Origin: a virus
Taxonomy: Duplodnaviria > Caudoviricetes
Reading direction: 5' to 3' (one strand)
DNA length: 64,000 nt
IMG/VR virus record: IMGVR_UViG_3300028591_000095
Coordinates: 64,001 to 128,000 of that record
Position numbers and translations under genes: made by a program. Below are positions 1,651 to 20,193 of the stretch, piece by piece; position 1 is the stretch's first letter, and every line of letters starts with the position of its first letter. The notes beneath the pieces are model-generated. The model did no database searches. It was not told the DNA's origin and saw only the letters and a program-made list of their open reading frames with translations.

Positions 1651-1674
1651 TTTTTTCGATAATAATGTTATTCC

Positions 1675-1694: not shown

Positions 1695-1733
1695 GAATAC
1701 ACAAACGAACTATTCTCATTGGAGGTGAGGATT

Positions 1734-3077: not shown

Positions 3078-3081
3078 TTAC

Positions 3082-3104
3082 AAGCTCCCCATTACGGGGA
3101 GCTT
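3082..3104 (+). terminator. intrinsic terminator
   Basis: AAGCTCCCC-ATTAC-GGGGAGCTT then CTTTTTCTT. Confidence 0.8.
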
Positions 3105-3114
3105 CTTTTTCTTG

Positions 3115-3188
3115 TCTATTATTCTTACATTCCATATATACATCATTATTATGGACAATACGAGAGTATTGTTACATTATATGAAAGG
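3115..3188 (+). repeat. 74-bp early promoter/leader cassette, copy 1 (copy 2 at 38203-38276)
   Basis: 73/74 identity; contains the promoter ATATATACATCATT (3134-3147), hairpin ACAATAC-GAGA-GTATTGT and GAAAGG RBS. Confidence 0.9.
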
Positions 3189-3198
3189 ATGTGATATA

Positions 3199-3435
3199 AT
3201 GAAAGTCTTCAGACTCGATGATGGCTCGACAGGTCTGGAACTTGATCATGGTGACATGGATAAGTATCACGTAATCATTCAGAATCTGTTAGCTATCCCA
3301 AACCTGTCGGAAATTCACTTTAAGAATTTGACAGGTAAGGAAGCAATGCAAGTCCGCCAGTCATTATGGAGATTCGTAGAAGTGTCAGATTTTTACGACA
3401 TCGACATTACACTTAGAAGAAAGGAAGAGATATAA
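3199..3435 (+). CDS. small hypothetical early protein
   Basis: ATG at 3199 after AAAGGA; flanked by an early promoter and a terminator. Confidence 0.7.
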   Translation: MKVFRLDDGSTGLELDHGDMDKYHVIIQNLLAIPNLSEIHFKNLTGKEAMQVRQSLWRFVEVSDFYDIDITLRRKEEI

Positions 3436-3440
3436 ATATT

Positions 3441-3467
3441 ATATGTGCCCCATTACGGGGCACATAT
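3441..3467. terminator. bidirectional terminator at convergent genes
   Basis: ATATGTGCCCC-ATTAC-GGGGCACATAT then TTTTT. Confidence 0.8.
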
Positions 3468-3473
3468 TTTTTG

Positions 3474-5618: not shown

Positions 5619-8055
5619 TATTTCCACCTCCATTATTCTGTTCCTCGTTAGGTTTTGAGTTCGGAGTACCTTCTTGCTTATATGCTTGAACGATGTCTCT
5701 GTATACTGAATAAGATTCCTTGTAGAATTTATTCGATATTACATTCGCTGCAGTTGCCGCATAGATGTTTGCAAGCTTCATAAGAGCTTCTTCAGCATCA
5801 GTTAAACCCTGAGAATCTTGTTGTGGGTTGTTTCCATTCTGCTGTTGATTCTGTCCTTGCTGTTGATTCTGTGTTTCGATACGTTTCTTAAGTGCATCTG
5901 CAGCTTTAGTCAATGAATCAGATATGGGTTTGAGCTGTTTAAGAGCGTTCTCAGCTTCAAGAATATTCTCACACAAATCAAGGAACATTTTGTCAGTAAC
6001 TGGTAGAGCCTGATTATTATTCTGAGGAGTTTGCTGCTGCTTATCATACAGAACAAAGTTCTCAACTTCCTGTTTCATCTGTTCATCAGACATCTGTGGA
6101 TCGATCTTCATTCTCAGATCCTGTGGAAGTGCTTTGATAAATAAGTCCGTTGCCAGATGACCAGCTTGTATATTTCTAGTCTTAGCATCGGTGACAGAAT
6201 TAGTCAAGTTTGTTATTGCATCAACATCGAGATGTCTGATCTTTTCAAGGTTGATATTGTACATCGGGAAGTTATTTACAGTGATATTGAAGTTCTTGGC
6301 TTTAAGAGCACCAGCAATTTCTTCATTGGTGGCTTTGTTATTCTTTACCCAAGTGATTTCCAAACGATGCATGTTGAGGAACTTCGGAGCAATATTAGCA
6401 AGCTGATCATGAATCCAACGAATCAATGCTGAGATTCTTCCCTGAAGCTTCATTGAAATATTCTTGGCTTTGTTCTGAAGAGTATTATTATCTCTACCAA
6501 CAACATTGACCTGTGGTTTAGCAGCTGTGTTGGCTTTGTTCTCACCCTGACCGGAATTTGGCTGTTGGTCATCAACTTCCATAACGAATGATTCTGTATA
6601 CAGATATCCAGGTATCATTGTATTTGGCATACTATCAGAGTTATCAACAACGAGTGTGTTGTTATGATAGAGCTTGAGTATACATCTTGTGAGTATCTCA
6701 CCAAGTACAGCAAGAATATCTTTAGTGATTTGATTATCATCAATCTCGTTATTTTTGTATGCTGAAATGATTCCAAGCATTACATTTCCAACATTGATGA
6801 TGTGGTTTGCGATCTCTTCATTCTTGGAGAGATGTTTGTCGCCGTATATATGATATATAGTATCCAGAGTATTAAGTATTGGATGTGTTGCCTGATTACC
6901 TGGATTATCACGACGATAATTTCCATCGTAGAACAGATCACCATATACAAGTTTATCCAACCAATTTACATCAGTATGGAAATCAGCCACTTCATATGGA
7001 TCTTCGTATGTACGCTGTCCGGTCTTCTGATTGATCCATGAATCACCAGGCTGTTTGAAAGTATCACGCCTGTGCTTAAGTAACATTGGAACTATCGAAC
7101 TAGCACCAGGAATGTCACATATAGTATTGAGATTCACATACTTGATCAGGAGCTGTGCAATAGGTGACTTCGGATTCTTGATGATGTAATAGAGTGCTGA
7201 AGCCACATCATGGAAATCAGGAGTCATATCAGCAAGTACAAGTTCACGGAAGTTACAACCGAATGGAATCTTAGAACGAAATACTCTTGTATCTGTCTGA
7301 AGAAGACAACATTCAGTCACTGTAGATTCTTCATCAGACTTTGTGTTGTATGATGACTTAGGAACAACGTAGTTCTTCATACCACATATTGTGATAGTAT
7401 TCAATGTAACTGCAAAGATGATGAATGACTGAAGGATTCTTGTGAATGCAGATGCTTTGAGTGGTTGAGAAAGTTGCCATACTGGATCCTTATCAATGAT
7501 ACCGGGAAGTGCTTTAACAATGTTCTTCATTACACCAGAGAAATGAAGATCATTTACTTTCTTCAGATCAGCTTTGATGTTCATCTTCTGAATACCAATT
7601 TCATAGTTTGACTTCAAGTATGTTGGGAATACTTCATTATGAGCGATAGTGAGAAGATCATCAAGCATGAAGTCCTTGACATCTACATATGATTGGGTGA
7701 ATGCACCGAGTACGTTTGTTTCATCAAATGGAGTGTCACCGTGCTCTTCAAGGAATCTGTATACAGATTCAACTGCAAATTTCTGCATATCATCAATGTT
7801 GTATTCAAGCATTCCAATGCGGAATGATTTTACAAGATTTGATGTAAATGTAGAAATGTCATTTGGTGTGATCAGACGAACTGCATATTTATTACTGCAA
7901 TATCCGTATTCACAATCAGCTGAAGAATGTACGGCTTTGTTGAGTTGGTCCAATGCTGTCTGATAAAGTTTCATTGCTTTTTCAAACTTCTCATTGAAAT
8001 GATCAGTGAACTCAAACTTTGGACGTGTGTCCTTTTTGTCCATTATATTATTCAA
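5608..8055 (-). CDS. large putative virion (head/inner-body) protein
   Basis: 815 aa with Q/N-rich linkers and YTESFVME candidate processing sites; lies in a minus-strand late cluster. Confidence 0.6.
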   Translation of the reverse strand: MNNIMDKKDTRPKFEFTDHFNEKFEKAMKLYQTALDQLNKAVHSSADCEYGYCSNKYAVRLITPNDISTFTSNLVKSFRIGMLEYNIDDMQKFAVESVYRFLEEHGDTPFDETNVLGAFTQSYVDVKDFMLDDLLTIAHNEVFPTYLKSNYEIGIQKMNIKADLKKVNDLHFSGVMKNIVKALPGIIDKDPVWQLSQPLKASAFTRILQSFIIFAVTLNTITICGMKNYVVPKSSYNTKSDEESTVTECCLLQTDTRVFRSKIPFGCNFRELVLADMTPDFHDVASALYYIIKNPKSPIAQLLIKYVNLNTICDIPGASSIVPMLLKHRRDTFKQPGDSWINQKTGQRTYEDPYEVADFHTDVNWLDKLVYGDLFYDGNYRRDNPGNQATHPILNTLDTIYHIYGDKHLSKNEEIANHIINVGNVMLGIISAYKNNEIDDNQITKDILAVLGEILTRCILKLYHNNTLVVDNSDSMPNTMIPGYLYTESFVMEVDDQQPNSGQGENKANTAAKPQVNVVGRDNNTLQNKAKNISMKLQGRISALIRWIHDQLANIAPKFLNMHRLEITWVKNNKATNEEIAGALKAKNFNITVNNFPMYNINLEKIRHLDVDAITNLTNSVTDAKTRNIQAGHLATDLFIKALPQDLRMKIDPQMSDEQMKQEVENFVLYDKQQQTPQNNNQALPVTDKMFLDLCENILEAENALKQLKPISDSLTKAADALKKRIETQNQQQGQNQQQNGNNPQQDSQGLTDAEEALMKLANIYAATAANVISNKFYKESYSVYRDIVQAYKQEGTPNSKPNEEQNNGGGNNAQ

Positions 8056-8237
8056 AACAATCAGCTCCTTTTATAAAATTTAATCGTCTGGGTTCAATAT
8101 AGTTTCGAATCCCAATGTAGATTACATCCTCGTTTTTATCAACTCATCAATAAGTCAGGGATATTCCATTACCATCTTCCCTATGATGGTCCTGACTTGA
8201 TAACTCCAATAACTAAAGCGTTTGTTTGTTTAATGTC

Positions 8238-8259
8238 GACCCCGGGATTACCCGGGGTC
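8238..8259. terminator. hairpin terminator
   Basis: GACCCCGGG-ATTA-CCCGGGGTC just after the RNAP beta-C stop. Confidence 0.75.
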
Positions 8260-8267
8260 ATCATTTT

Positions 8268-9011
8268 TCAGTCTTCAGTAAATTGAGCTCTAACGAGTCC
8301 TGTATTATAGTAAGCTTCTGATACAATATCAGTCTTAATACCCATTGCTTTCAAGAACAAGTCAGTCTTAAGCAATGTGGGTTTATCAAGTGAATTGGTT
8401 TTGATATCCGCAAGTTTACAACTACCCGATTCAGATATCTTCTCAAGCATGTTTTCATACTCGATCATGTTATCACCACGAACACCACAAATCTCGGACA
8501 GAACATTATCAGCTCCAATACCAATAAGGATTTCATTCTCGATTCCAGAGAATGTACCACCTTTGGATTCACCCTTAGCAATACCTGTAAGATCATCACG
8601 ATCCAAGTCATTAATTACACCGGTTGATTTTTTGGTCTGGAGTTGTTGTACAGTCTTGATATTGAGATATCCAACCAGTACAGGAGTACGAGTTCTGATT
8701 GGACGATTTGGGTTTGATGATACATGTGGAAGATATACGTACTCGTACAACTTGAGATTCATAGCGTCTGCAGCTTTCTCAATGTTCTCATATTTGAGAG
8801 TCTTGCGTTTATCATACTCTTCAATGTCAAGTCTGATATTAGCTTTTGGATCTGCTAAGAACTGAGTAACCCATTGTGTGAACTCAGCATCATTCATGTG
8901 AGAAAATACCGCACGATATTTATTAGCATTATCTCCAGAAGGATCCATAGCATTTAATGTACGATATATGAGAGTCTCAATTTGACCACGCTTAGATTTT
9001 ATATCAGCCAT
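8268..9011 (-). CDS. RNA polymerase beta subunit C-terminal fragment (split, probably virion RNAP)
   Basis: VGYLNIKTVQQLQTKKS...RDDLTG...ESKGGTFSGIENEILIGIGADNVLSEICGVRGDN aligns with the RpoB C-terminal GYMY..KL..L...K...GGQRFGEMEVWALEAYGA...LQEMLTVKSDD. Confidence 0.8.
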   Translation of the reverse strand: MADIKSKRGQIETLIYRTLNAMDPSGDNANKYRAVFSHMNDAEFTQWVTQFLADPKANIRLDIEEYDKRKTLKYENIEKAADAMNLKLYEYVYLPHVSSNPNRPIRTRTPVLVGYLNIKTVQQLQTKKSTGVINDLDRDDLTGIAKGESKGGTFSGIENEILIGIGADNVLSEICGVRGDNMIEYENMLEKISESGSCKLADIKTNSLDKPTLLKTDLFLKAMGIKTDIVSEAYYNTGLVRAQFTED

Positions 9012-9023
9012 TTATATCACCTC

Positions 9024-10346
9024 TTAACCGATAACACCCTTCTGTATAATGTAACCCTGATTTTCAATTTTTGCAGGTGTGATAGGTGTATTATCATCTA
9101 TGCGATTAGTTTTACAATCAAATACGTTTTCAAATCCAAGAGTCTTTGCAGGTATTGATTTTATATTAGGATATACGCTCATATCTCGTATATCAACTAT
9201 AAATTTCGAATCTTCATTCGTATTGAATTCAAGTCTTTTAGTTCCAACATTATAGTCTCTATGTTGATAACCTTGAGCAATTCCTTGACGGTTCATATCT
9301 GTGACTTTATTGAGCATGTCCGAAGCAGTCATACCTCTACCAGATGTATTACCGTTAACCTGACGCTTCATATCCTTTGTAATCTCAACACAATCATTCA
9401 GAATAACCGCTTGAGTTTTAACAGATTGATTCATCAATTGCTGTCTGACTGAACTTGTAGCAGTTTGTGCATTGTTTGCAGCTTGATTAGCTTGTTGTAA
9501 TGATTGATTTACAGACTGATCGATTTTTTGCTGTTGTTCTTGAATCTGTTTAATCATTGCTTGGAAATCACCAGCTTTAATTGTCACAAATCCATCCTGT
9601 TGAGTTGGCTGAGATGTTTGCTGTTGGGTGTTTGGTTGATTCTGTGGAGTTGGTTGTGTAGGATTCTGCGGTGTTGGTTGTGGGGATGGTTGTGGAGTAG
9701 GTTGTTGTGGAGTAGGTTGTTGAGATTGACTCAACTCTTGTTGCTGTTTTTCAAGTAAAGTCTTTTTGATCTGTAAAGCTTTCATCTTCTTTTCAATTTC
9801 AGCAAGCTCAGCTGCGATCTGTTTAAATTCTTGCTCATTCTGCTGATTATCAGGTTGACTCAATGCTTGAACAGCTCTCTGGTTCACTTGTGTGTATTTT
9901 TGAACTTCCTGTTGAAGTTGCTGTGTCTGTGGTGGAGCTTGTACCTGGGTTTCAGGTGGTATCTTCTTTGTGTTGAGAACTACAAAGTTTGACGCTTTCT
10001 TACACCAACCAAGAAGTTTATTGATACCATTCTCAATCTTGTTTGAAAGATTTTGAACAAAGTTATCATTTGAATTGTTTGTAGCATTGCTGATTTTCTG
10101 ACCAACTTTGTCAACAGCTGCGTTACCTTTCTGAATAGCATTATCAAATCCTTTGTCAATCTTTTGACCAACATTTGATACGCCTTGTGTAACAGCTCTT
10201 CCAGCTTTCTGGATATTATCTTTGAAACCAGCTTCCATGCAATAGAATTCCATCACATATTCTTTTTCATATGATTTCATTAATGCCATAAGCACGTTAT
10301 ATTCAGACTCCAGAATTACGTATTCTATTTCCATAGTCATAGACAT
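9024..10346 (-). CDS. putative head/inner-body protein with propeptide and Q/P-rich repeat linker
   Basis: N-terminus ILESEYNVLMALMKSYEKEYVMEFYCMEA paralogous to the 10837 gene; QPTPQ repeats; coiled coils. Confidence 0.6.
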   Translation of the reverse strand: MSMTMEIEYVILESEYNVLMALMKSYEKEYVMEFYCMEAGFKDNIQKAGRAVTQGVSNVGQKIDKGFDNAIQKGNAAVDKVGQKISNATNNSNDNFVQNLSNKIENGINKLLGWCKKASNFVVLNTKKIPPETQVQAPPQTQQLQQEVQKYTQVNQRAVQALSQPDNQQNEQEFKQIAAELAEIEKKMKALQIKKTLLEKQQQELSQSQQPTPQQPTPQPSPQPTPQNPTQPTPQNQPNTQQQTSQPTQQDGFVTIKAGDFQAMIKQIQEQQQKIDQSVNQSLQQANQAANNAQTATSSVRQQLMNQSVKTQAVILNDCVEITKDMKRQVNGNTSGRGMTASDMLNKVTDMNRQGIAQGYQHRDYNVGTKRLEFNTNEDSKFIVDIRDMSVYPNIKSIPAKTLGFENVFDCKTNRIDDNTPITPAKIENQGYIIQKGVIG

Positions 10347-10358
10347 ATAGATTCCTCC

Positions 10359-10832
10359 TTATATAAATATTTTATTTGAGTATAATTGGTTGAGTTCATC
10401 GAATGAAACTCCAATTACAACTTTCTTTGATTTGGAACCGATTGCCATTCTGTCACTGCCTTCAATCTGTAATATCAATGCAGGATTTCCTTCAAGCTCG
10501 TCAATAATACAATCAATGGTGATATCGGTTATTGACAAACGATTACACTGTTCCTCAAGTTCTTCCCTGATCTTCTTAGGAATAGATTTATCATCAGCAT
10601 ATTCGAATAAATATGATTCGATGTTGATACCCAATTCAGGTATCGATGGATACTGACCTGGTTTCATTAATAGGAGCGTCAGTATGATGTTCACAGCCAT
10701 TTCGAATGTGGAGATGACTTTTGGTTTAGAAGCTGAATCATATCCCATAGTTGCATCATAACCTAAGGTCTGAACAGATGATGGATACTTTCTATTGATC
10801 TCTTGGAGCGTAATACCTTTTTCATCTAACAT
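10359..10832 (-). CDS. baseplate wedge protein, gp25-like
   Basis: ILTLLLMKPGQYPSIPELGINIESYLFE resembles the gp25/GPW motif (L.T.PGE.P..PEFG..L..LLFE). Confidence 0.7.
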   Translation of the reverse strand: MLDEKGITLQEINRKYPSSVQTLGYDATMGYDSASKPKVISTFEMAVNIILTLLLMKPGQYPSIPELGINIESYLFEYADDKSIPKKIREELEEQCNRLSITDITIDCIIDELEGNPALILQIEGSDRMAIGSKSKKVVIGVSFDELNQLYSNKIFI

Positions 10833-10836
10833 AATA

Positions 10837-11952
10837 TCATTCCTTTCTTATGACAGGGATATTATCTATCGATACCAGTTCCGTCAGTTGTCGTTTCAAC
10901 AATGCATCGTCTCCACTACCAGGGGTTACATCCCATTCTCCATTGGTTTCATGAGCATTATTGAAATATGTTGCTTCGAAACAGTCAAATGCCCATTTAC
11001 ATAATGACTTAAGGTCAATTTGCGGAATTGAGCCATCAACTAAATCGGATTGTCTAATTGTATAACCAAACGATGTCCATATTTCTCGACCAGTAGCATC
11101 ACGACCATATTTAATATGATCACCACCATAACTTTTATTCACACCTAAGTCTTTATCAAACTCACCACCAAATTCTCTACACAAATCACCGACATACGCG
11201 CTTACCATTATCCAGCAATATCCATTTTGACAACTGTATTTGAATTGGTAAGATCCGCGTTCTGGGTCTGCACGAACAGAATGTTTAGCAGCACTGCTAG
11301 ATGTTGCTAGGAATGCACAAGCGCTTTTAAAGTCGGTACAAAGTGTTCTAATGCTGATATATTTTCCACCTTGAACCGATCCATTTGGAGTTCCAACTTT
11401 TTCAAAAGATTTCTTTAAATTCTCAATAATATATTTCGTTTCTTCAAGAGATTTATTAGTTGAAATCTGTTCTGTTATATTCTTATTAGCTTTAGCAAGT
11501 TCTTCAAGAATTTCCTTACAACGTTGAACATTTGCAATATTCTTCTCGTTCTCAGCTTCATCGAGATATTGTTGAACGGTTGTTGTCATCTTTTCAACAG
11601 CTTTCAAATAATCAGCAAGTGTTTCATTGGATGCTTTTTCAAGATTACCCATAGAATCTTTCAATTTTGAAAACTCTTCTGAACTTTCATCTATGAGCTG
11701 TTTCAAATCTCTGAGATCAGGTTTCGGATCAACTGGTTTGGAATCATCTTTACCGAATAAACGTCTTATCTTCTTTCTGATCCAATCAATTATTCTACGA
11801 CATAATGCAACGAGTCTTTTCAGCAAACCTGGTTTAGATTCACCATCAGCTTCCATATAATAAGATTCCATAAGGAATTCTTTTTCATATGATTTTGATA
11901 ATGACATGAGTACATTGTATTCTGATTCAAGAACAATATCTTGTATATTCAT
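10837..11952 (-). CDS. putative head/inner-body protein, paralog of 9024-10346
   Basis: N-terminus VLESEYNVLMSLSKSYEKEFLMESYYMEA, then an amphipathic helix and coiled coil. Confidence 0.6.
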   Translation of the reverse strand: MNIQDIVLESEYNVLMSLSKSYEKEFLMESYYMEADGESKPGLLKRLVALCRRIIDWIRKKIRRLFGKDDSKPVDPKPDLRDLKQLIDESSEEFSKLKDSMGNLEKASNETLADYLKAVEKMTTTVQQYLDEAENEKNIANVQRCKEILEELAKANKNITEQISTNKSLEETKYIIENLKKSFEKVGTPNGSVQGGKYISIRTLCTDFKSACAFLATSSSAAKHSVRADPERGSYQFKYSCQNGYCWIMVSAYVGDLCREFGGEFDKDLGVNKSYGGDHIKYGRDATGREIWTSFGYTIRQSDLVDGSIPQIDLKSLCKWAFDCFEATYFNNAHETNGEWDVTPGSGDDALLKRQLTELVSIDNIPVIRKE

Positions 11953-11958
11953 TATCAA

Positions 11959-12240
11959 TCACTCCTTTTTTAATTCATCACGTATCATTTCACATATCAC
12001 TGAGGCATCTTTGCCTTTCATATAGAAATCATACAATTTCTCAATCAATAATGTCAGTATGATTGATGTTGACTGTGAAGCATTTGCAAACACTAATTCA
12101 CTTGATAATGATACATTAGATCTCATTATCGTTAATAAGTATTCATCTGATTTATTTGATATATCTCCTTTAGTAGATAATGTAATCACTTCTGGAAATC
12201 TATCAATTATCATCTGAATGGTTTCATGTACTTTACTCAT
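11959..12240 (-). CDS. hypothetical protein
   Basis: Probable ATG at 12240 after AGGGGTG; abuts neighbouring genes. Confidence 0.6.
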   Translation of the reverse strand: MSKVHETIQMIIDRFPEVITLSTKGDISNKSDEYLLTIMRSNVSLSSELVFANASQSTSIILTLLIEKLYDFYMKGKDASVICEMIRDELKKE

Positions 12241-12250
12241 ATAATCACCC

Positions 12251-13000
12251 CTATTCAGGACGATTGTTTGGTGATTCAACATATTCATTATCGAACTCAT
12301 CATAGTTCTTATCAAGAATCTTGATGTAATGCATTCCAGTTCGTTTGCATTCATTTCTCATCATTTGGTCTTTTCTTGCTTCGATATCACGATTATGTTC
12401 CATGAATGATGTGTTGAAGTTACCTTGTTTAATCTCAACATGGAGATTCAATGATGGAATGAAGAAATCTGGAATGTACAGATGTTTGGTTCCGTCTCCC
12501 CATTTGTAATGGAAATCTACTGGGGATGGAGCAATGATATCATCAGGACTCCAGTCCATGCTCTTGAGATGATTCAAGAAATCAACTTCGTAATTACCGA
12601 TAACTCTGAACTTATGATTCTCATCCCATACATAATCACGAGCATCAGCATGATTCATCATCATCTTACGTTGTTGAGCTCCATCATTCAACAGATGTTC
12701 TTTTCCATACACATTAACCATTCTCGATTTCATCATCTTGACGTAAGCTTCCTTACATTTCGGATCATCACAAAGTCGAGCATATTTTAATGTATCATCA
12801 TTGAATGCGACTCTACGTTTACGACACATCAAACACAAACGTCCCATCGGTTTATTGACGAATAATGAATAAGCAAACTCGTATCCATCATCACAATCCT
12901 GAGGAATTTGGTCATTGTGTTTATAAACAACATGATCACAATACTTATGTTTATCATCAAATGATCTGTCACAGAATAAACATTTTACTCTACGACTCAT
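12251..13000 (-). CDS. zinc-finger plus TnsA/gp4-like PD-(D/E)xK endonuclease
   Basis: CLFC...HVVYKH (C2H2), CLMC...CDDPKC, and YIPDFFIPSLNLHVEIK nuclease motif; GGAGG RBS. Confidence 0.7.
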   Translation of the reverse strand: MSRRVKCLFCDRSFDDKHKYCDHVVYKHNDQIPQDCDDGYEFAYSLFVNKPMGRLCLMCRKRRVAFNDDTLKYARLCDDPKCKEAYVKMMKSRMVNVYGKEHLLNDGAQQRKMMMNHADARDYVWDENHKFRVIGNYEVDFLNHLKSMDWSPDDIIAPSPVDFHYKWGDGTKHLYIPDFFIPSLNLHVEIKQGNFNTSFMEHNRDIEARKDQMMRNECKRTGMHYIKILDKNYDEFDNEYVESPNNRPE

Positions 13001-13026
13001 AGTCAAACCTCCTTTAATAAAGAATA

Positions 13027-13054
13027 TTATAGTTTGGTCTCAACCAATGTGTAA
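13027..13054. promoter_or_regulatory. back-to-back divergent late promoters
   Basis: Minus strand GACC-AAACTA-TAA (13027-13039); plus strand AACC-AATGTG-TAA (13042-13054). Confidence 0.6.
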
Positions 13055-13097
13055 TCTATCTCTGATAGAATTAAACTAACGAAAGTGGTGATATTTA

Positions 13098-13625
13098 ATG
13101 AGAGTAAATGTAATGGGTAAAGGTGTTTGCCCTGTTCTCGGTTCGATCTTGCCAATCGTAAATGTTGATATTGATGAAGGAACACTTCTGAGACTTGTTA
13201 ACACACGTACAATCCGTGTATTTGATGCAATCACAGGACTTCAGATTACATCAAGAAATTACAAGAATATCATAATGTCAAGAGTAGTAGCTCCTAAGGC
13301 ACAGGTTGAAACACCCGTTGAACCCGTCAAGGTCTCTCCAAATCCATCGACTGCTAAGAAGAAGTCAACAAAGAAGTCAACCAAGGAAGAGGCTCCCGCA
13401 ACAGTGGAAGCTGTACCAGAGGTTGCTGCAGAGGAGACTCCTTCCGAACCTGTTGAGGCTCCAGTAGAAGTGCAGTCAGAGCCCCAGCCAGAAACTCCTG
13501 AAACAGAAACTCCAGCTGAGACAACAGACACAACCGACGATACAACAGAAGATTCGTCAGCTGAGACTGAATCAGAAGATACTGAGCAGACCACATACTC
13601 ATCAAAGAAGAAGAAGAGAAGATAA
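13098..13625 (+). CDS. hypothetical protein with long acidic P/E/T-rich disordered tail and basic C-terminus
   Basis: 175 aa ending KKKKRR; late promoter upstream, terminator downstream. Confidence 0.75.
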   Translation: MRVNVMGKGVCPVLGSILPIVNVDIDEGTLLRLVNTRTIRVFDAITGLQITSRNYKNIIMSRVVAPKAQVETPVEPVKVSPNPSTAKKKSTKKSTKEEAPATVEAVPEVAAEETPSEPVEAPVEVQSEPQPETPETETPAETTDTTDDTTEDSSAETESEDTEQTTYSSKKKKRR

Positions 13626-13629
13626 GATA

Positions 13630-13649
13630 GGGCGGGGTTAACCCCGCCC
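13630..13649 (+). terminator. hairpin terminator
   Basis: GGGCGGGGTTAACCCCGCCC. Confidence 0.75.
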
Positions 13650-13669
13650 AATTCTTTTATGTCTCAAAA

Positions 13670-13682
13670 AACCAAACCGTAA
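13670..13682 (+). promoter_or_regulatory. putative late promoter of the dockerin operon
   Basis: AACC-AAACCG-TAA. Confidence 0.6.
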
Positions 13683-13708
13683 AATTATACTTTAAAGAAG
13701 GTGATAAA

Positions 13709-14902
13709 ATGGATGAATTCATAAATGAATTTGATTTTGGTATTGATGAAGCGATGACATTTATAATGGAATCTGCTGAAACGAATCTCAGATTGAGAAA
13801 AGAAATCATCGAACCAATCATGAAGGTTCTTGATACCAAAAAGGGTTCTGATGAATATCTGAAGTTTGGTACTGAATTTATTGAAGCTAATGCTGAAATG
13901 CTTGCAAGAGAATTTCCAACTAAACGTGTATCATTCCCAAAGAAATACGTTGATAATATATTCAGTGTATTTGGATTTGATAAAGATGAATTCAAGAAAA
14001 CATTCAAAGAATTATGTGCTGATATCAATGGTAGTGACTTCAAGACTGTAATGGCTACTCCAACGAACATAATTCATACGATTGTTTTATTCTATTCAGA
14101 TATCACATACAATCGTTATGTTAGAGACTCAGCACGTCAACAACTTGCATTGACTGTCTATCACGTTATGTTCAATAAATTCTATCATGGTTTACCAGAT
14201 GAGAAAGTCATGGCATATACATATCTTCATCTTAATAGAAACTGGGCTATCATTAAAGCTGAAGATATGATGACATGGATATCTGATATGGTTGATTCTG
14301 CATATGGATTCTATAAAACCCAACTCACACTGAATACTTCTGCACACACAATCATCAAGTTCTTGAATAGACTCAGAGCACAGATGCGTCAGTCAATGGC
14401 ACAACTTGCAAATGTTTACTTTAAGAATCAGACTGAAGGCAATCGTGTTAATGAAGATTCTACAACTGGAGACAATGAATATATTGTATCTGATGATACA
14501 TCTCAAATCCGTAGTAAACTCATGCAGTTGTTGAAACGTGGTGATACTCTGTATACTACTGAAAGTAATTTGTATACTGGAGTTGGCAGACTCAAGAATG
14601 TTTCATCAAAAGCATTATTTGAATTAGCCCAGCAAGTATCTCATAGAGATATCAGTGAATTGATTGATTTAATATTCTACGTGTTCATAGTAAAAGAAGG
14701 ACATAAGGTTGAAGAAATCAATTCATCTGCATACATCGGTGAGATAACAAACTTACCAACCAAAGTTGATCGTTGTATTCCTGGAAAACCTATCATTGCT
14801 CCATATGTAAAGAAATACAAGGTCAAGAAAGAATTGATCGTCGCATATATCTGTCTTATTGCAACATGGATAATGATGAGGATCAATGACGTTACTAAAT
14901 AA
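13709..14902 (+). CDS. hypothetical protein (helical), first gene of a late operon
   Basis: 397-aa ORF with AAGGTGA RBS. Confidence 0.8.
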   Translation: MDEFINEFDFGIDEAMTFIMESAETNLRLRKEIIEPIMKVLDTKKGSDEYLKFGTEFIEANAEMLAREFPTKRVSFPKKYVDNIFSVFGFDKDEFKKTFKELCADINGSDFKTVMATPTNIIHTIVLFYSDITYNRYVRDSARQQLALTVYHVMFNKFYHGLPDEKVMAYTYLHLNRNWAIIKAEDMMTWISDMVDSAYGFYKTQLTLNTSAHTIIKFLNRLRAQMRQSMAQLANVYFKNQTEGNRVNEDSTTGDNEYIVSDDTSQIRSKLMQLLKRGDTLYTTESNLYTGVGRLKNVSSKALFELAQQVSHRDISELIDLIFYVFIVKEGHKVEEINSSAYIGEITNLPTKVDRCIPGKPIIAPYVKKYKVKKELIVAYICLIATWIMMRINDVTK

Positions 14903-14916
14903 AAGGAGATGATAAT

Positions 14917-16785
14917 ATGGCTAGAGCATTAGGCGATTTGAGTCCTGCAGTTGGTGGTGATGGTGTTATCAACGAAGATGATCTTCAAGCATATCAGGAT
15001 GCCATTGATTTAAACAGAATCCATTCGCATTGGGATAACGTTGAAGACCCTGAAGATCCTGGTCATCGTATTAACAAAATCATTGACATCGATAATGGTG
15101 GTTTGTTAACAGATCAAGCTCGTGTTGCATCATTACACAGAACTGGATTTATATCCAATATCGATAAACTTCTGATTTCATCTTTTATTAATGATCCACA
15201 AGGTGAAACTCTTGAAGCACATATCAATGCTATAGATTCAAAGGAAGTTATTCCTGTACCGGATCCATCCGTTAAGACTCTTGAAGAACTCAGAAGAAAT
15301 ATCACTGATCATATTCAAGAACTTGTTATCTTCCAAGCTCAAGCATTTCTTGAATTGCAGAAGACGGGACCTTCAAGCTTACACGACGTTGAACAGAAGA
15401 TGCAACGTGTATGGGCTGATGCATATAAGTATGATTATGATACAGCAGCTCAGACTGATGCTAACATGGAAGCTGCATTAGAAGTTGATGGAAGCAAATA
15501 TCCTGAGGATGATGGACATAAGAAACTCCCACAGAACATCTATGGTCTCATCGATAGTATCATCAGAGCTCTTACAAAGGTTCAGCTTGATAATGTAATA
15601 TCAGAATATTGGAAACCTAGTGAGGCTCCTACAATATCAGATCCACCTACACCCGAGCAACAGACTAAAGTTATCGATCATATATGGAATGAAACAGGTG
15701 TCGAGAAAGGTCTTTCATTCTACAATGAATGGAAGGATGTTGAACCTTCACCAGAGCCAGGACCAGAACCGACTCCTACTACAGACTTGGTACCTCCAAT
15801 TCCAACAGCAGCAGCACTAACTGGAGATCTTGCTACATGGGTTTCTAATTCAGCAAATGCATCAGATCTTCAAGCAGTCATCGATGCTCAACATCCACAT
15901 CAGATTATTACATGTGCATTCAAATCTGGTGTTACAAATGCATCTACAACGAAATCTGTTGAACTTACATGTTGGCAATATTCATCTGGTACATGGGCAA
16001 AAGCTAAGGATAAAGATGGAAATGATATGGAATTTACCGAAGGCTGTTATGTAGGTGATGCTGGTATCTTCCCAGTATCAGAACTCAAAGAAGGAGATAA
16101 TGCTAAGAAAAATAGAACTCCAGCAGGTGCATTCCAGCTTGGTAACTATACAACCAATACAGACGAGGTTGGTGCATTTGGTATTGATACTGCTTGGGGA
16201 ACTGAAACACCTGACATGCACTATCGTGTTTTAAATGCTAATAATGTACACTGGATTGATCGTGATGGTTGGCTTGCTGGTTTGAAAAACTGGTACAACA
16301 TGTTTGCTAACTGTGATGGTCAACGTGCACTTATTCAGTATAAACGTTTCGATTGGGATACAGGAGTTTCAGGTGGTGTTGCTGATAAAGATGGTAATAA
16401 GTATTCAACTGCAAGTACGGAATTCAAGTATGGTCAGTTCTATACAGTTTCACCATTAGTAGATTCATCAGAATATAAAGAAAATCTGTATGAAGAAACT
16501 TCGAGTTATGGAAGTAAATATTCTTACAACCATGCAGTTGTTATCAGATTCAATATGCCACCACATGTAACTAGACCAGTATTGCCAAAAAACACAGATG
16601 AACAACAGCCAGCATATACATCTGATGGTATTGGTGCTGGATCGGCATACTTCTTACACACATCCAATGGTTCAAATACTGGAGGATGTGTATCTGCAAA
16701 CGATAACGATGTCGTGAAGATAATCAAGTGGTTGAAGCGTAATGATAACCCTTACATTCTCATCAGACTTCCCTCAGGATCATAA
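14917..16785 (+). CDS. dockerin-like module + Pro/Thr linker + L,D-transpeptidase (YkuD)-like catalytic domain
   Basis: N-terminal LGDLSPAVGGDGVINEDDLQAYQ and second repeat LTDQARVASLHRTGFISNIDKLLISSFI; linker EPSPEPGPEPTPTT; C-terminal RTPAGAF...YNHAVVIRFN...GAGSAYFLHTSNGSNTGGCVS (H...TxGC). Confidence 0.7.
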   Translation: MARALGDLSPAVGGDGVINEDDLQAYQDAIDLNRIHSHWDNVEDPEDPGHRINKIIDIDNGGLLTDQARVASLHRTGFISNIDKLLISSFINDPQGETLEAHINAIDSKEVIPVPDPSVKTLEELRRNITDHIQELVIFQAQAFLELQKTGPSSLHDVEQKMQRVWADAYKYDYDTAAQTDANMEAALEVDGSKYPEDDGHKKLPQNIYGLIDSIIRALTKVQLDNVISEYWKPSEAPTISDPPTPEQQTKVIDHIWNETGVEKGLSFYNEWKDVEPSPEPGPEPTPTTDLVPPIPTAAALTGDLATWVSNSANASDLQAVIDAQHPHQIITCAFKSGVTNASTTKSVELTCWQYSSGTWAKAKDKDGNDMEFTEGCYVGDAGIFPVSELKEGDNAKKNRTPAGAFQLGNYTTNTDEVGAFGIDTAWGTETPDMHYRVLNANNVHWIDRDGWLAGLKNWYNMFANCDGQRALIQYKRFDWDTGVSGGVADKDGNKYSTASTEFKYGQFYTVSPLVDSSEYKENLYEETSSYGSKYSYNHAVVIRFNMPPHVTRPVLPKNTDEQQPAYTSDGIGAGSAYFLHTSNGSNTGGCVSANDNDVVKIIKWLKRNDNPYILIRLPSGS

Positions 16786-16803
16786 TGAAAGGAGTTGAAT
16801 ATT

Positions 16804-17289
16804 ATGGCTAGAATATTTGGTGATTTCAATGACGATGGTACCGTAGATGCAAGAGATTCATCTGCTATCGGTGGTTATGTCACAACTCTTAAGAAATGTG
16901 GAACTCCTGAATCTATACCAACTCAAGAGGATATTGATGCTGGTGATGTTTTGAGATTTGGTAAACTCAATATGTATGATTCGAAAGCTATATTGACAGT
17001 ATACGCAATTGACAGTACACTAGAAAGAGATTGGGTTTGTCCAAAAACAGAACCATCTAACTGGGCTACAGCATATAAGAAGTTTTATTACACTGATCCA
17101 CAGACTCAAGAGAGAAAACCTATGAGTGCAATGACACAGTGTCCTTCATTCGATCCTGGTGGAACTGGTTATATCGGTCCATATTGGATCCATGGAAACT
17201 TTGCAGCTAATGTATTTCCTAAGAAACATAATGAGGAACATGATATTGATTACATCGATATCAGTAACTACATATCTGATTTACCATAA
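16804..17289 (+). CDS. dockerin type I domain protein
   Basis: FGDFNDDGTVDARDSSAIGGY and AGDVLRFGKLNMYDSKAILTVY are the duplicated F-hand dockerin repeats; C-terminal TEPSNWATAYKKFYY segment. Confidence 0.75.
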   Translation: MARIFGDFNDDGTVDARDSSAIGGYVTTLKKCGTPESIPTQEDIDAGDVLRFGKLNMYDSKAILTVYAIDSTLERDWVCPKTEPSNWATAYKKFYYTDPQTQERKPMSAMTQCPSFDPGGTGYIGPYWIHGNFAANVFPKKHNEEHDIDYIDISNYISDLP

Positions 17290-17374
17290 CTCACAAGTAA
17301 TCTCATTAGCTAGACTTCCAATATAGGTAGCCGTTGGAACCTCCTTTGAAAACTAATGGGATTTTAAAATATAT

Positions 17375-17396
17375 ACACCCCGGTTTCCCGGGGTGT
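17375..17396 (+). terminator. intrinsic terminator
   Basis: ACACCCCGG-TTTC-CCGGGGTGT then TTTATTTT. Confidence 0.8.
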
Positions 17397-17412
17397 TTTA
17401 TTTTCTCTTTTT

Positions 17413-17432
17413 GTATTTATATCATTATGGTG
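17413..17432 (+). promoter_or_regulatory. putative early promoter
   Basis: GTATTTATATCATT-ATG-GTG. Confidence 0.65.
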
Positions 17433-17480
17433 TACGAAGGAACTCATTTGTACAAAAATTTATCTAGGAGGTTAATCATT

Positions 17481-18161
17481 ATGGGTGTACAGAATGACAG
17501 TAATTTTGAAGGAAGCGTATTTGAGAAATCATTGAACTTTCATAACAAGGATAAGAGTATCGATGACAAACTCAAGGAGCTTCCTAAGTCTGATGGTGCA
17601 TGGCAAAAATGTATCGATGATAACATCGTACCAACTAACCCAGTATATACTGGTGAAGCTAAGGAGGAACCAAAGACTGTTAAGAGACCATCAAAACCTG
17701 AATATTATCTCAACATTGCATCAGTGGTTGCAACACGTTCTACATGTATACGTAGAAAGTTCGGTGCTGTAATAGTAAAGGATGATACAATCATATCAAC
17801 CGGATATGCAGGAGCTCCTCGTGGTCGTGAGAATTGTTGTTCCAGAGGAGAATGTTTCAGAATGGAAAACAATATCCCAGCTGGTACAAGATATGAAGTA
17901 TGTAGATCTGTACATGCTGAAATGAATGCAATCATCAACGCTGATCCTATAAAACGTAAAGGTGCCACAATGTATCTTGTGGGTCTTGAGAATGATGGTT
18001 CATATACAGAAGCAGATTGTTGTTCAATGTGTAAGAGAATGGTAATCAATTCTGGAATAACAAAGATGGTATTCCGTACAAAGGACAAAGGTGTTAGAAC
18101 AGTGGTTGTTAATGAATGGATTGCAAATGATGATTCATTAACTATACATGAGGGATATTGA
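17481..18161 (+). CDS. dCMP deaminase (ComEB-like)
   Basis: RSTCIRRKFGAVIV, STGYAGAPRG, VHAEMNAII and CCSMCKRMVIN zinc motifs; AGGAGG RBS. Confidence 0.9.
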   Translation: MGVQNDSNFEGSVFEKSLNFHNKDKSIDDKLKELPKSDGAWQKCIDDNIVPTNPVYTGEAKEEPKTVKRPSKPEYYLNIASVVATRSTCIRRKFGAVIVKDDTIISTGYAGAPRGRENCCSRGECFRMENNIPAGTRYEVCRSVHAEMNAIINADPIKRKGATMYLVGLENDGSYTEADCCSMCKRMVINSGITKMVFRTKDKGVRTVVVNEWIANDDSLTIHEGY

Positions 18162-18162
18162 T

Positions 18163-20193
18163 ATGAATGAATTTGAAAAGTATTTGAAAGAACATCACAT
18201 TGAAAGTATCGGAACTCCTCCTCCGGATTTACGTAAAGTATTTCCGGAAGGAGCAATGATGTTCAATGTAACATATCGAAGACATCCTGAAGAATTTGAA
18301 GTTGTGTATCTTGATCCAGCGACTAATCGGTTAGAGGTTGCATACATTCCTGCAATTGTAGATATCTGGTTTACTAAACCCGAATTCAGATATACAATGA
18401 AGGATTCATGTATTGAGCCATACTTCAAAGACAAGATGAGATATCAACACAAGGATGATGATGCATATCAGATACCACAGATAGAACTTGATAAAACTTA
18501 TCGAGTTTGGTGTAAAGTATCTCAGATTCCAAAGATGATATATCAGCACGCTGGTAAAGCAAAGATGTATTCTGAAGATGGCTCACATCTGATAGATACA
18601 ACATATGCTGAATTCTATGAAGAGAATATGGGATCTGCATATACATTCGGAACCTTCACCAAACGAATGTGCCAGAATCCATGGTCATTTAAGTGTGACT
18701 TCCAACCAGATGTATACTTCAGAGATCGTTGGGTTCATGAATTCGGTGATGTTTGTGATACATCAAAAGTCACAGCAGCATTTCTTGATATTGAGATTGA
18801 TGTTCTTGATGTTAATATAAATCTTAAGAATCCAAAGGATAACCGAGCTCATGTATCAATGGTAACATCAATATTCCCTAAGGATAAAATGGTGTATGTT
18901 GATATACTTGAACCTAGACCATTAAATGACTTTGCTCAACATCTACATGAGAAAGTGATCCCATTACGTAATAAGATGGTCAAAGAATATGAATGGATTA
19001 AATCTCATCAGAAAGAATTCATTGATATGATTCTCGGTCATGAATCTACATCCAATTGTCCAGTACGTATTGATGAAGACATGGAGAATCTCAAATATCT
19101 TCAGGGGTATACTGTAAACCTTGGATTGTTTGAACAGCGTGAAGGTAGACCATTCATTGAAGCTGAAGCTCGATTGATAGATAACGTGTTTGCACATGTA
19201 AATCTTCATAGACCAATGTTCATGTTTGCATGGAATGCTCCGTTCGATATCAATTATCTTCCAAACCGATTACAATATATTGGTTATGACCCGGGTAGTT
19301 CAGTTGTACCAGAAAACTTCAAATCGAAAGAGATTAGATATGAACCCGATAAAACAAATAACTTCTCAATGAAGAACAGTCGTGACTGGTTCTATATAGC
19401 ATCTTATACACAATACTTATGTCAGGAACGTCTGTATGCTGGAATAAGAAAGTCTCAGTCTGAAGAACCTTCATATCAGTTGACTGCTATAGGTAAGAAG
19501 GTGGCAAAGATTGAGAAGTTGACTGATACTAAATCCGGTAAATTCTCCGAGTTCTTATACACAGACTTCATCAAGTTCGTATTGTATAACGTTCGTGACG
19601 TTGTTATTCAACTTGCAATAGAAACCAAAGTAAGTGATGCGAAAACGTTGTACGCTCGATCATATGACTTCGTTACAGCATTCTCAAAATGTTTCCAAGA
19701 AACACATATCGTAAGAAACTCAAAAGCAAATCTGTATGAAGTATTTGGATATGTAATGGCTAACAAAGTTGTCGTCGATAAAACTATCGATGGTGCTTTC
19801 CAGGGAGCTTATGTTGCTGATCCATTAAAGAACTCAGTAACAATGGTCATGTCTGGTCGTGGAATGAACTGTATCATTTACGGCTCTGCAGATTTGGATG
19901 CTACAGCAATGTACCCATCTCAGAAGATGGCATATAATCTTGGTAAGATGACACTTATCTACAAATGTAGAATTGATAATAACCTTTTCCGAAATAAGGT
20001 TTGCAGGAACTTATCATACAACCAGAAATATACGTGGAAAGATTCTGACAAGAATGAACATGAAACTGATTTGTCTGGTCCATTATTCAACTCATTTAAA
20101 AATCACAATGTATGTTCATTGATGCATAATTGGTTTAATGCACCTACTGTAACTGAACTCATTGCTCATACACATAAAGTGTTAACATATTAA
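18163..20193 (+). CDS. family B DNA polymerase, N-terminal part (3'-5' exonuclease + motif A) of a split enzyme
   Basis: ExoI FLDIEID, ExoII AWNAPFDINY, ExoIII YNVRD, FQGAYV, motif A DLDATAMYPS; no KxxxNSxYG or YGDTDS before the stop. Confidence 0.85.
   Translation: MNEFEKYLKEHHIESIGTPPPDLRKVFPEGAMMFNVTYRRHPEEFEVVYLDPATNRLEVAYIPAIVDIWFTKPEFRYTMKDSCIEPYFKDKMRYQHKDDDAYQIPQIELDKTYRVWCKVSQIPKMIYQHAGKAKMYSEDGSHLIDTTYAEFYEENMGSAYTFGTFTKRMCQNPWSFKCDFQPDVYFRDRWVHEFGDVCDTSKVTAAFLDIEIDVLDVNINLKNPKDNRAHVSMVTSIFPKDKMVYVDILEPRPLNDFAQHLHEKVIPLRNKMVKEYEWIKSHQKEFIDMILGHESTSNCPVRIDEDMENLKYLQGYTVNLGLFEQREGRPFIEAEARLIDNVFAHVNLHRPMFMFAWNAPFDINYLPNRLQYIGYDPGSSVVPENFKSKEIRYEPDKTNNFSMKNSRDWFYIASYTQYLCQERLYAGIRKSQSEEPSYQLTAIGKKVAKIEKLTDTKSGKFSEFLYTDFIKFVLYNVRDVVIQLAIETKVSDAKTLYARSYDFVTAFSKCFQETHIVRNSKANLYEVFGYVMANKVVVDKTIDGAFQGAYVADPLKNSVTMVMSGRGMNCIIYGSADLDATAMYPSQKMAYNLGKMTLIYKCRIDNNLFRNKVCRNLSYNQKYTWKDSDKNEHETDLSGPLFNSFKNHNVCSLMHNWFNAPTVTELIAHTHKVLTY

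Follow-up and report, generated by a model that had tools for sequence, protein, structure and literature searches.

A putative late gene unit of a jumbo phage encodes a predicted Ruminococcus-type dockerin and a predicted wall enzyme with a related module

Two adjacent phage genes that begin with similar dockerin-like modules raise the question of whether a phage might dock proteins of its own into the cohesin sockets of its host. We addressed this question in a window of 64,000 nucleotides (positions 64,001 to 128,000 of the virus record IMGVR_UViG_3300028591_000095), where the reading frames of both genes, here called g2 and g3, and their first residues (MARALGD from position 14917 and MARIFGD from position 16804) lie where the original prediction had placed them. 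That prediction had described a two-gene operon behind a late promoter. We found instead a unit of three genes, with g1 located between the promoter-like motif and g2 (Table 1).

The unit is bounded by two strong terminators, each a G+C-rich hairpin followed by a T run; the upstream hairpin is conserved in three related phage loci (L003, L005 and L007), and the downstream one is the terminator that had been predicted for the end of the unit. The promoter-like motif, AACC-N6-TAA, is conserved in L005 and L007. The window contains six copies (6.8 would be expected by chance), all of them intergenic, on the same strand as the gene that follows and 31–70 nt upstream of a gene start; the motif precedes five other genes besides the unit, and the unit has it in common with virion genes. 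The late promoter of phage AR9 is AACA-N6-TA/G, found ~10 nt before the transcript start and upstream of late genes (PMC5312081). The window motif, known from sequence alone, differs from it in the fourth base and is a plausible AR9-like late promoter, with g1 intervening before g2. Late units of AR9/PBS1-type phages likewise have hairpin terminators at both ends, and the window shares with these phages split multisubunit RNA polymerase genes, but its RNA polymerase is <30% identical to those of the cultured relatives. Signals for co-transcription of g1, g2 and g3 are present, and an AGGAG ribosome-binding site lies 8–9 nt upstream of g3. (Note that the g1 protein has a conserved hydrophobic stretch at its C-terminus and that searches of PDB sequences and of the phage collection gave no match to it.)

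Table 1 Features of the g1-g2-g3 unit and its borders, in window positions
Feature	Positions	Strand	Basis or remarks
Upstream intrinsic terminator hairpin	13630-13649	+	8 G-C pairs, T-rich tail; closes preceding gene
Promoter-like motif AACCAAACCGTAA (AACC-N6-TAA)	13670-13682	+	39 nt ahead of g1 start
g1	13709-14902	+	397 aa; phrog_2921
g2	14917-16785	+	622 aa; starts MARALGD
g2 residues 1-95, divergent dockerin-like F-hand pair	14917-15201	+	hhalign to g3 module
g2 residues 100-300, conserved helical region, then Pro/Thr/Glu-rich linker (~276-300)	15214-15816	+	Alignment; low-confidence model secondary structure
g2 residues 302-622, YkuD (L,D-transpeptidase/carboxypeptidase) fold	15820-16785	+	Pfam, VIA-align
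g3	16804-17289	+	161 aa; starts MARIFGD
g3 residues 1-73, R. flavefaciens-type dockerin	16804-17022	+	Pfam, profile, fold
g3 residues 74-161, small conserved domain	17023-17289	+	P-x-N-W, Y-K-K-Y-Y-Y, invariant C-terminal L-P
Downstream intrinsic terminator hairpin	17375-17396	+	9 pairs, T tail; closes unit ahead of dCMP deaminase gene

On sequence and modelled fold, g3 begins with a true dockerin like those of Ruminococcus flavefaciens, and cohesin binding is predicted for it. In particular, 14 of the 15 members of the g3 family match Pfam Dockerin_1 (PF00404; best E 2.8e-7), while EF-hand families are matched by one member each. The window protein itself falls short of the cut-off (22.4 versus 22.9 bits), and a six-frame search, at 24.5 bits, exceeds it. 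Among solved structures, the family profile matches the ScaH dockerin of R. flavefaciens best (8ajy_B, E 5.1e-10), with the alignment spanning both repeats and the Y-A-I-x-S-T tail, which bears out the predicted Ruminococcus type. Run against two R. flavefaciens genomes, the same profile recovered full-length dockerins in both (31 in one and 34 in the other), with E values as low as 1e-13. Consistent with the predicted dockerin fold, the best 11 of 48,161 chains in a structural comparison (VIA) are all dockerins (Z 3.4–4.8, rmsd 2.4–3.6 Å over 55–77 residues, apart from a weaker alignment that covers 42 residues at 5.2 Å), as are the top three Foldseek matches (TMt 0.59–0.66). All of these dockerins were seen in cohesin complexes. 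Note that the dockerin part of the g3 model reaches a pLDDT of only 50–66.

In g3, loop 1 follows the canonical pattern D-x-N-x-D-G-x-x-D-x-x-D (D7-F-N9-D-D11-G-T-V-D15-A-R-D18), with D7 and D18 invariant among 15 sequences. It carries A-R at recognition positions 10–11, and the Arg at position 11 is kept in the window protein and in most relatives; in group-4 dockerins the cohesin-contact residues are G11/R12 (PMC5301203). Loop 2 is degenerate (D48-V-L50-R-F52-G-K-L-N56-M-Y-D59), with Leu and Phe at ligand positions 3 and 5, and these positions are hydrophobic in 14 of 15 relatives, P0030 alone having a canonical loop. Because loop 2 is degenerate, and because cohesin-binding dockerins with a single repeat occur naturally (PMC12270676), we class g3 as a dockerin whose only intact site is loop 1 rather than as a canonical two-site dockerin. 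The remainder of the protein is modelled better (pLDDT 83–90 for residues 81–130); nevertheless, the structural comparison gave no fold match for residues 74–161 and the protein atlas gave no lead. The protein has no hydrophobic segment.

The likeness of the g3 module to the ScaH dockerin (a group-4 dockerin, solved with the ScaE cohesin in PDB 8AJY) comprises a length of ~70 residues, two F-hand segments and a three-helix fold. With R. flavefaciens dockerins in general the module shares a loop 1 of the form D-x-N-x-D-G-x-V-D-x-R-D and a Y-A-x-x-S-T tail after the second helix, and its profile matches them with E values from 5e-10 to 1e-13, the LRR-Doc proteins of strains 007c and MA2007 included. 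The N-terminal placement of the phage modules is also known to work in R. flavefaciens, where dockerins at the N-terminus equal those at the C-terminus in activity (PMC5301203). The phage modules differ in being phage-encoded, in starting at residue 5 without a signal peptide, in their degenerate loop 2 and in having parent proteins that are not carbohydrate-active.

For g2, the claim of a second dockerin protein holds in part: its N-terminus appears to be a diverged homologue of the g3 module but falls outside the Pfam family. Profile–profile alignment of the two modules (hhalign) gave a probability of 94.4% and a score of 42.5, as compared with scores of at most 20.4 and probabilities of at most 10% in 30 column shuffles. 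None of 13 g2 relatives matched Pfam Dockerin_1 at E <= 0.1, and a search of the PDB gave only a weak dockerin match (8x3a, E 0.28). Structural matches are similarly weak (8ajy_D at Z 5.2 over residues 4–109, 2ccl_B at TMt 0.64 and 4fl4_A at TMt 0.59, from a model with pLDDT 45–64). Loop 1 has an insertion of 4–6 residues in all relatives but the deepest, loop 2 (S-L-H-x-T-G-F-I-S-N-I-D) has lost three ligands, and the recognition position lacks Arg, while the module is well conserved inside its own family. Because the g2 N-terminus fails Pfam and yet is homologous to the g3 module, we call it dockerin-like, or dockerin-derived, and not a member of the family. These findings support a diverged copy of the g3 module, with cohesin binding again a prediction.

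The C-terminal domain of g2 has, by Pfam and by structural modelling, a YkuD fold with an invariant His/Cys pair, and wall-enzyme activity is predicted for it. It scores 23.6 bits against Pfam YkuD (PF03734; cut-off 23.4), a model that 12 of 13 relatives also match, and its three best structural matches are the hydrolytic L,D-carboxypeptidases Pgp2 (6XJ7, Z 11.4), Csd6 (4XZZ, Z 11.2) and Bd1075 (7O21, Z 10.2), aligned at 2.8–3.0 Å over 129–136 residues; ten further chains of the L,D-transpeptidase fold follow at Z 8.3–9.8. H581 (16657–16659) and C591 (16687–16689), located within F-L-H...G-G-C-V-S, are invariant in 13 sequences and, from the motif and the aligned structural range, are probably the equivalents of the catalytic pair through which Csd6, Pgp2, Bd1075 and the L,D-transpeptidases act on peptidoglycan stem peptides, an action predicted for g2 as well. 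Several features set g2 apart from these enzymes, namely a domain of ~320 residues with large insertions rather than ~130–150, sequence similarity merely at the Pfam threshold, G-C-V-S in place of G-C-I-R, the lack of an NTF2-like or PG_binding partner domain, and cytoplasmic synthesis in a phage. YkuD is a rare catalytic class among phage lytic proteins (PhaLP, PMC8310338). Like these proteins and modular endolysins, g2 combines a wall-acting domain, a linker and a targeting module, but its module is dockerin-like (two papers, PMC8310338 among them, do not mention dockerins), it has 622 residues with a 200-residue helical middle, and its phage has a separate Amidase_2 lysin.

Is the enzyme then a hydrolase? 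Most likely, we infer, g2 is an L,D-carboxypeptidase or endopeptidase. It would instead be a true transpeptidase if it cross-linked or decorated peptidoglycan, for example for superinfection exclusion or protein attachment. The Pfam name of the fold and a catalytic His/Cys pair that serves both chemistries are compatible with this, as are the Z scores of L,D-transpeptidases (9–9.8), which lie less than 2 units below those of the carboxypeptidases. However, without a signal peptide g2 would have no access to the wall while the infected cell is alive, an enzyme made late would have little time in which remodelling could pay, the three top structural matches are carboxypeptidases, and a Ser follows the Cys-Val of g2 where the usual L,D-transpeptidase motif, G-C-I-R, has Arg. 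We regard transpeptidation as very improbable. A regulatory role of the F-hand module is also improbable, if less so. Dockerins need Ca2+ to fold, and the module might be disordered in the low-Ca2+ cytoplasm and fold outside, keeping the peptidase harmless until lysis with no specific partner. The canonical EF-type loop 1 of g3, the single matches to EF-hand families and the usefulness of a control on premature activity in proteins that are not secreted would fit such a switch; yet no catalytic domain that such a switch could control is known in g3, the loop 1 insertion and three lost loop 2 ligands make Ca2+ binding by g2 doubtful, and the similarity to R. flavefaciens dockerins reaches the helices and the Y-A-x-x-S-T tail, that is, interaction surfaces.

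An N-terminal module common to two different proteins is also a textbook sign of an adaptor that fastens proteins to the virion, and this counts against docking into the host. On that account the module would attach g2 and g3 to the particle via a phage partner, cohesin-like or not, with g2 as an entry wall hydrolase, g3 as an accessory or decoration protein and host cohesins uninvolved. Tail-associated lysins are built much like g2, which runs from its N-terminal module through long conserved helices and a linker to a C-terminal peptidase; moreover, g2 and g3 share the N-terminal module only, like receptor-binding or tail-spike proteins with a common anchor, and the motif in common with virion genes, the conservation of the g2 module (as for a conserved phage partner), the invariant extreme C-terminus of g3 and the separate endolysin candidate all fit. 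We nonetheless consider such an adaptor rather unlikely. A search for Pfam Cohesin in the phage record (166,640 bp, 62% complete) gave nothing credible, only an 11.9-bit chance match inside the DNA polymerase gene, and we found no third protein carrying the module; since the record is 62% complete, a phage-encoded partner is possible. The g3 module is near the host-type consensus and evolves fast, which better suits the tracking of variable host cohesins than a conserved virion socket. Furthermore, 50,697 cultured phage records contain no homologues of g2 or g3, and hence offer no virion proteome to lean on.

The reading we favour, tentatively and at a little short of an even chance, is lysis-linked docking of g2 and g3 into host cohesins, with g2 as an accessory wall cutter. 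Both proteins would be late products of an AR9-like jumbo phage, probably of a rumen Ruminococcus, with modules copied from the repertoire of the host. As had been predicted, inspection of their polar N-termini (M-A-R-x-x-G-D, with the dockerin from residue 5–6 and no hydrophobic leader) reveals no signal peptide, whereas dockerin proteins of cellulosome-type systems are secreted by one. Because of this lack, g2 and g3 would have just two routes to the cell surface, either through the membrane once lysis has breached it or as components of the particle. The module may then fold in Ca2+-containing surroundings and dock onto a cohesin at the surface of the host or on its scaffoldins, which would tether the Cys/His YkuD-fold peptidase of g2 beside peptidoglycan; g3 would either bring its small C-terminal domain to a socket of this kind or simply fill one. 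The presence of a separate 270-aa Amidase_2 protein (an endolysin candidate at L008:1412-2224) is the reason why we regard g2 as an accessory enzyme. (We rejected g2 as the main endolysin of the phage, given this protein and the finding that no membrane protein follows g2, whereas a main lysin usually has a holin as its neighbour.)

Several observations count against docking into the host, among them the degenerate loop 2 of both proteins, the failure of g2 to match Pfam and its lack of the recognition Arg, and the low confidence (pLDDT 45–66) with which both N-termini are modelled. Dockerin-like modules are, in addition, common in organisms without cohesins. Of note, among 1.84 billion proteins the longest cellular match to g3, and its nearest cellular dockerins, come from R. 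flavefaciens strains 007c and MA2007, which speaks for docking. The closest R. flavefaciens dockerins belong to LRR-Doc proteins, and this counts against it: FD-1 dockerins whose parent proteins contain LRRs bound, for the most part, not one of the cohesins tested, in a species that has many cohesins (PMC5301203).

The distribution of the genes agrees with the predicted jumbo phage, as an identical g2 protein is encoded on a 261,215-bp contig, and the proposed survey of related phages found g2 and g3 adjacent in nine of nine loci. They are the fastest-evolving genes of the neighbourhood (31–34% identity to relatives for g3 and 37–54% for g2, as compared with 80–85% for g1 across the clade and 65–69% for DNA polymerase), which fits proteins at the interface with the host. 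The relatives come from ruminant-gut metagenomes, with samples labelled TONG22-1, a label that suggests a buffalo gut survey. A Ruminococcus host is suggested by these circumstances, although the proposed CRISPR-spacer matching did not add to them: 20 kb of the window, compared with 161 Ruminococcus genomes (two candidates scored per genome), yielded no CRISPR-like match. The cultured phages most closely related to this one have Staphylococcus, Bacillus and Listeria as hosts, and also Yersinia and Fusobacterium.

Dockerin-annotated genes have also been described on a putative ANME-2 virus contig, with a proposed role in cell-surface adhesion (PMC13452462). There the setting is archaeal and the dockerin adjoins a secreted NosD-like protein, unlike the enzyme fusion and the gene pair conserved across a phage clade described here. 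Adhesion by the phage itself is unlikely in our view, but would take the form of a particle that displays host-type dockerins, with g3 as a decoration or fibre-tip protein and g2 as a tethered wall cutter, and that adsorbs via free cohesins of Ruminococcus surface scaffoldins or of fibre-bound cellulosomes. If so, the Lego-like assembly system of the bacterium would be the receptor of the phage, and cohesin–dockerin specificity would set its host range.

The protein encoded by g3, the last gene of a three-gene unit (g1, g2 and g3), begins with a module (residues 1-73) that carries the signature of a dockerin, as had originally been predicted. Against the Pfam family Dockerin_1 the g3 protein scored 22.4 bits (cut-off 22.9) and, in a six-frame search, 24.5 bits. 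When 1.84 billion representatives were searched exhaustively, a g3 family of some dozen small proteins emerged; 14 of 15 members matched Dockerin_1, and EF-hand families were matched by one member each. The best solved match to the family profile was the ScaH dockerin of Ruminococcus flavefaciens (8ajy_B; E 5.1e-10, 42.8 bits), in an alignment spanning both repeats and the Y-A-I-x-S-T tail, with Clostridium dockerins far behind at 30.7 bits or less. The g3-derived profile found 31 full-length dockerins in one R. flavefaciens genome and 34 in another, the best at E 1e-13, and the cellular protein matching g3 over the longest stretch in the 1.84-billion-protein search came from R. flavefaciens 007c and MA2007. 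The AlphaFold model of g3 has a mean pLDDT of 68.7; its three best Foldseek matches were dockerins, as were the eleven best of 48,161 chains compared by VIA-align, the module part itself being modelled at a pLDDT of only 50-66.

In g3, loop 1 is canonical and position 11 is still Arg; group-4 dockerins contact their cohesin through a Gly-Arg pair at this site (PMC5301203). Two ligand positions of loop 2 are occupied by Leu and Phe, a feature shared by nearly all relatives. Placing g3 in the ScaE-binding group 4 would not be justified: the best match among solved structures is ScaH, yet the best genomic matches in R. flavefaciens are the dockerins of LRR (LRR-Doc) proteins. Because most dockerins of LRR-containing parent proteins in R. 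flavefaciens FD-1 bound no tested cohesin (PMC5301203), no single partner of g3 can be put forward, ScaE being one candidate among others. The remainder of g3 (residues 74-161) is a conserved domain that gave no fold match, Pfam match or protein-atlas lead; the idea that it resembles choline-binding-type wall repeats found no support. In P0025, a 202-aa g3 relative on a Logan contig, a module of this C-terminal type (P-x-N-W ... Y-K-x-Y-Y-Y ... A-P-x-W ... K-Y-F-Y) is duplicated before the dockerin. Judging from this duplication, the C-terminal module is separable and mobile.

For g2, the prediction of a dockerin (residues 1-95) held in part. None of 13 relatives gave a Pfam dockerin match over this region, and structural matches were weak (8ajy_D, Z 5.2; 2ccl_B, TMt 0.64) in a low-confidence segment of the model. 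Profile-profile comparison with the g3 module, however, gave a probability of 94.4% and a score of 42.5, compared with a maximum of 20.4 in 30 column shuffles and 10.4 for the reversed profile. In the deepest g2 relative the loop is canonical (D-L-N-G-D-N-I-L-D-Q-T-D); the remaining relatives have an insertion of 4-6 residues in loop 1, and a comparable one is present in one g3 lineage. The second segment, S-L-H-R-T-G-F-I-S-N-I-D, was placed by alignment to true dockerins and follows a Q-containing linker helix; three ligands are replaced, and H74, G77, S80 and D83 are invariant. In a 254,975-bp relative the first Ca loop carries insertions in both g2 (L003:6001-7830, Y-P-V-P-P-E-P-G) and g3 (L003:7851-8303, Y-P-I-G-S-G), which may reflect exchange between the two modules, or parallel change in them, inside a single genome.

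The rest of g2 comprises a conserved, predicted helical region (residues 100-275), a Pro/Thr/Glu linker and a C-terminal domain (residues 302-621) with a YkuD fold. This fold was seen with VIA-align, with the L,D-carboxypeptidases Pgp2 (Z 11.4), Csd6 (11.2) and Bd1075 (10.2) ahead of ten L,D-transpeptidase-fold chains (Z 8.3-9.8), but was missed by Foldseek, which found no significant match to the whole model; the whole g2 profile retrieved from PDB sequences only noise and one weak dockerin match. Against Pfam YkuD, g2 scored 23.6 bits (cut-off 23.4); 12 of 13 relatives matched, and both H581 and C591 are invariant. In R. flavefaciens there is no gene like g2, the sole match being one of 19 bits in a broken frame, and we therefore do not regard the catalytic domain as a recent capture from the host. 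One paper lists YkuD, as a rare entry, among the catalytic domains of phage lytic proteins and makes no mention of dockerin (PMC8310338).

Features of the three-gene unit and its surroundings (window positions unless stated; identity is between the window's proteins and those of three relatives)
Feature	Position	Strand	Length	Identity	Remark
DUF7487 / phrog_15137 endonuclease	12251-13006	minus			N-terminal C2H2-like zinc finger
AACC-N6-TAA	13042-13054
Acidic-tailed protein	13098-13625		175 aa
Strong hairpin terminator	13630-13649				Upstream flank of unit
AACC-N6-TAA	13670-13682
g1	13709-14902		397 aa	80-85%
g2	14917-16785		622 aa	37-54%
g3	16804-17289		161 aa	31-34%
Strong hairpin terminator	17375-17396				Downstream flank of unit
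dCMP deaminase	17481-18161			53-74%
DNA polymerase	18148-20193			65-69%
AACC-N6-TAA	30724-30736
AACC-N6-TAA	42915-42927
AACC-N6-TAA	49938-49950
AACC-N6-TAA	60645-60657
Amidase_2 protein	L008:1412-2224 (G000:C1:6911-7723)		270 aa		Outside window

The three genes are co-oriented and closely packed between two strong hairpin terminators. Thus, the operon originally proposed does end at a terminator but consists of three genes, g1 included, rather than two. A late-type promoter had been predicted where AACCAAACCGTAA sits, 39 bases 5' of g1. The motif AACC-N6-TAA is no more frequent in the window than expected by chance (6 copies versus 6.8). All six copies are intergenic and on the coding strand, with a gene beginning 31-70 nt further downstream; among these genes are one for an RNA polymerase subunit, a virion structural gene and the giant gene of 2551 aa. 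The motif is one base away from the experimentally defined late promoter of phage AR9, AACA-N6-TA/G (PMC5312081), and the copy before g1 is kept in two of three relatives. Given this placement, conservation and near-identity to the AR9 consensus, AACC-N6-TAA can reasonably be considered a candidate for a late promoter element, of the kind used by the non-virion RNA polymerase.

The first gene, g1 (phrog_2921), shows 80-85% identity between phages that share only 65-69% in DNA polymerase, and a conserved hydrophobic stretch (L-I-V-A-Y-I-C-L-I-A-T-W-I-M-M) closes its product. It behaves as a core gene would, its product may be membrane-associated, and its tie to g2 and g3 may be only transcriptional. 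There was no PDB match to g1, and its protein-atlas neighbours were uninformative; we did not take it for a cohesin-like scaffold, because its composition suggests a largely helical protein.

The order g1, g2, g3, dCMP deaminase, DNA polymerase was the same in every relative examined, and in the survey of related phages a g3-like dockerin gene lay 3' of g2 in all nine loci. Since g2 and g3 are kept in order but have the lowest identities of the set, they are retained yet fast-evolving, like most host-interface proteins. The parent record is 166,640 bp long and an estimated 62% complete; a 261,215-bp contig encodes an identical g2 protein, and the phage is therefore a jumbo phage, as predicted. 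The window encodes a split multisubunit RNA polymerase, topoisomerase II, helicase, DNA polymerase and virion genes. Among cultured phages, those nearest in RNA polymerase beta (all <30% identity) include Staphylococcus S6, PALS_2 and DC4, Yersinia phiR1-37, Bacillus AR9-like phages, Listeria LPJP1 and Fusobacterium phages. No match to the cassette or to g1, g2 or g3 came up, at the DNA or the protein level, among 50,697 cultured phage records. The relatives come from one JGI metagenome and from samples labelled TONG22-1, a label that suggests a buffalo digestive tract survey (PMC8831627). The CRISPR-spacer link to a host envisaged in the original prediction did not emerge from 161 Ruminococcus genomes searched with window positions 1-20000 at two candidates per genome, a weak negative of low power; only imperfect matches of 24-56 nt were found, and neither of two sites inspected lay in a repeat array.

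The most economical explanation, and one to which we give a little less than an even chance, is that the phage acquired a dockerin from the Ruminococcus repertoire and deployed it on two late proteins. Whether virion-borne or released at lysis, g2 and g3 would, once outside the cytoplasm, dock onto cohesins, and docking would place the Cys/His L,D-peptidase of g2 at the cell wall. The 270-aa Amidase_2 protein is likely the main endolysin, so g2 would be an additional wall enzyme. Profile and regex searches covering the 166-kb record in all six frames located the module in g2 and g3 alone, and we therefore set aside a general phage address tag; no phage-encoded cohesin was detected in this 62%-complete record. 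Alternatively, though we consider it unlikely, the shared N-terminus might attach both proteins to the virion, with g2 acting as a tail-associated lysin. That the module works as a Ca2+ switch, without any partner, is quite improbable, and genuine transpeptidation by g2, with its YkuD fold, is more improbable still.

Cohesin-dockerin pairing is among the strongest and most specific protein-protein interactions and organises rumen fibre digestion. As the original prediction stated, no characterised phage cohesin-dockerin system exists in the literature that we searched; dockerin annotations occur in a handful of viral sequences, among them a putative ANME-2 virus contig (PMC13452462) and a Vibrio phage gene. 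The parts are thus known already, and the combination and viral setting are new. Should the modules prove to bind host cohesins, the phage would be the first virus to mimic cellulosome parts, with a possible account of how phages find, hold or open fibre-degrading Ruminococcus cells; the modules would form a new class of targeting domain for phage wall enzymes, and infection could directly alter cellulosome occupancy and fibre breakdown.

Several neighbouring genes are also of note. The C-terminal 70 or so residues of the Amidase_2 protein form an unassigned stretch that, by eye, resembles SH3b, and its modular layout looks typical of phages of Gram-positive hosts. The 175-aa protein, which is syntenic in all relatives and preceded by an AACC-N6-TAA of its own, has a conserved N-terminal domain of 60 residues and a long acidic tail rich in Pro, Glu and Thr, and ends in K-K-K-K-R-R. 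The DUF7487 endonuclease gene just upstream of the cassette is likewise syntenic in relatives; about 100 nt of its frame are shared with the next ORF (11959-12354), so that the start of one or the other may be wrongly called. The dCMP deaminase gene lies directly upstream of that for DNA polymerase. AR9-like, S6 and phiR1-37 phages have deoxyuridine DNA, and since these are among the nearest cultured relatives, uracil may replace thymine in the window's phage too.
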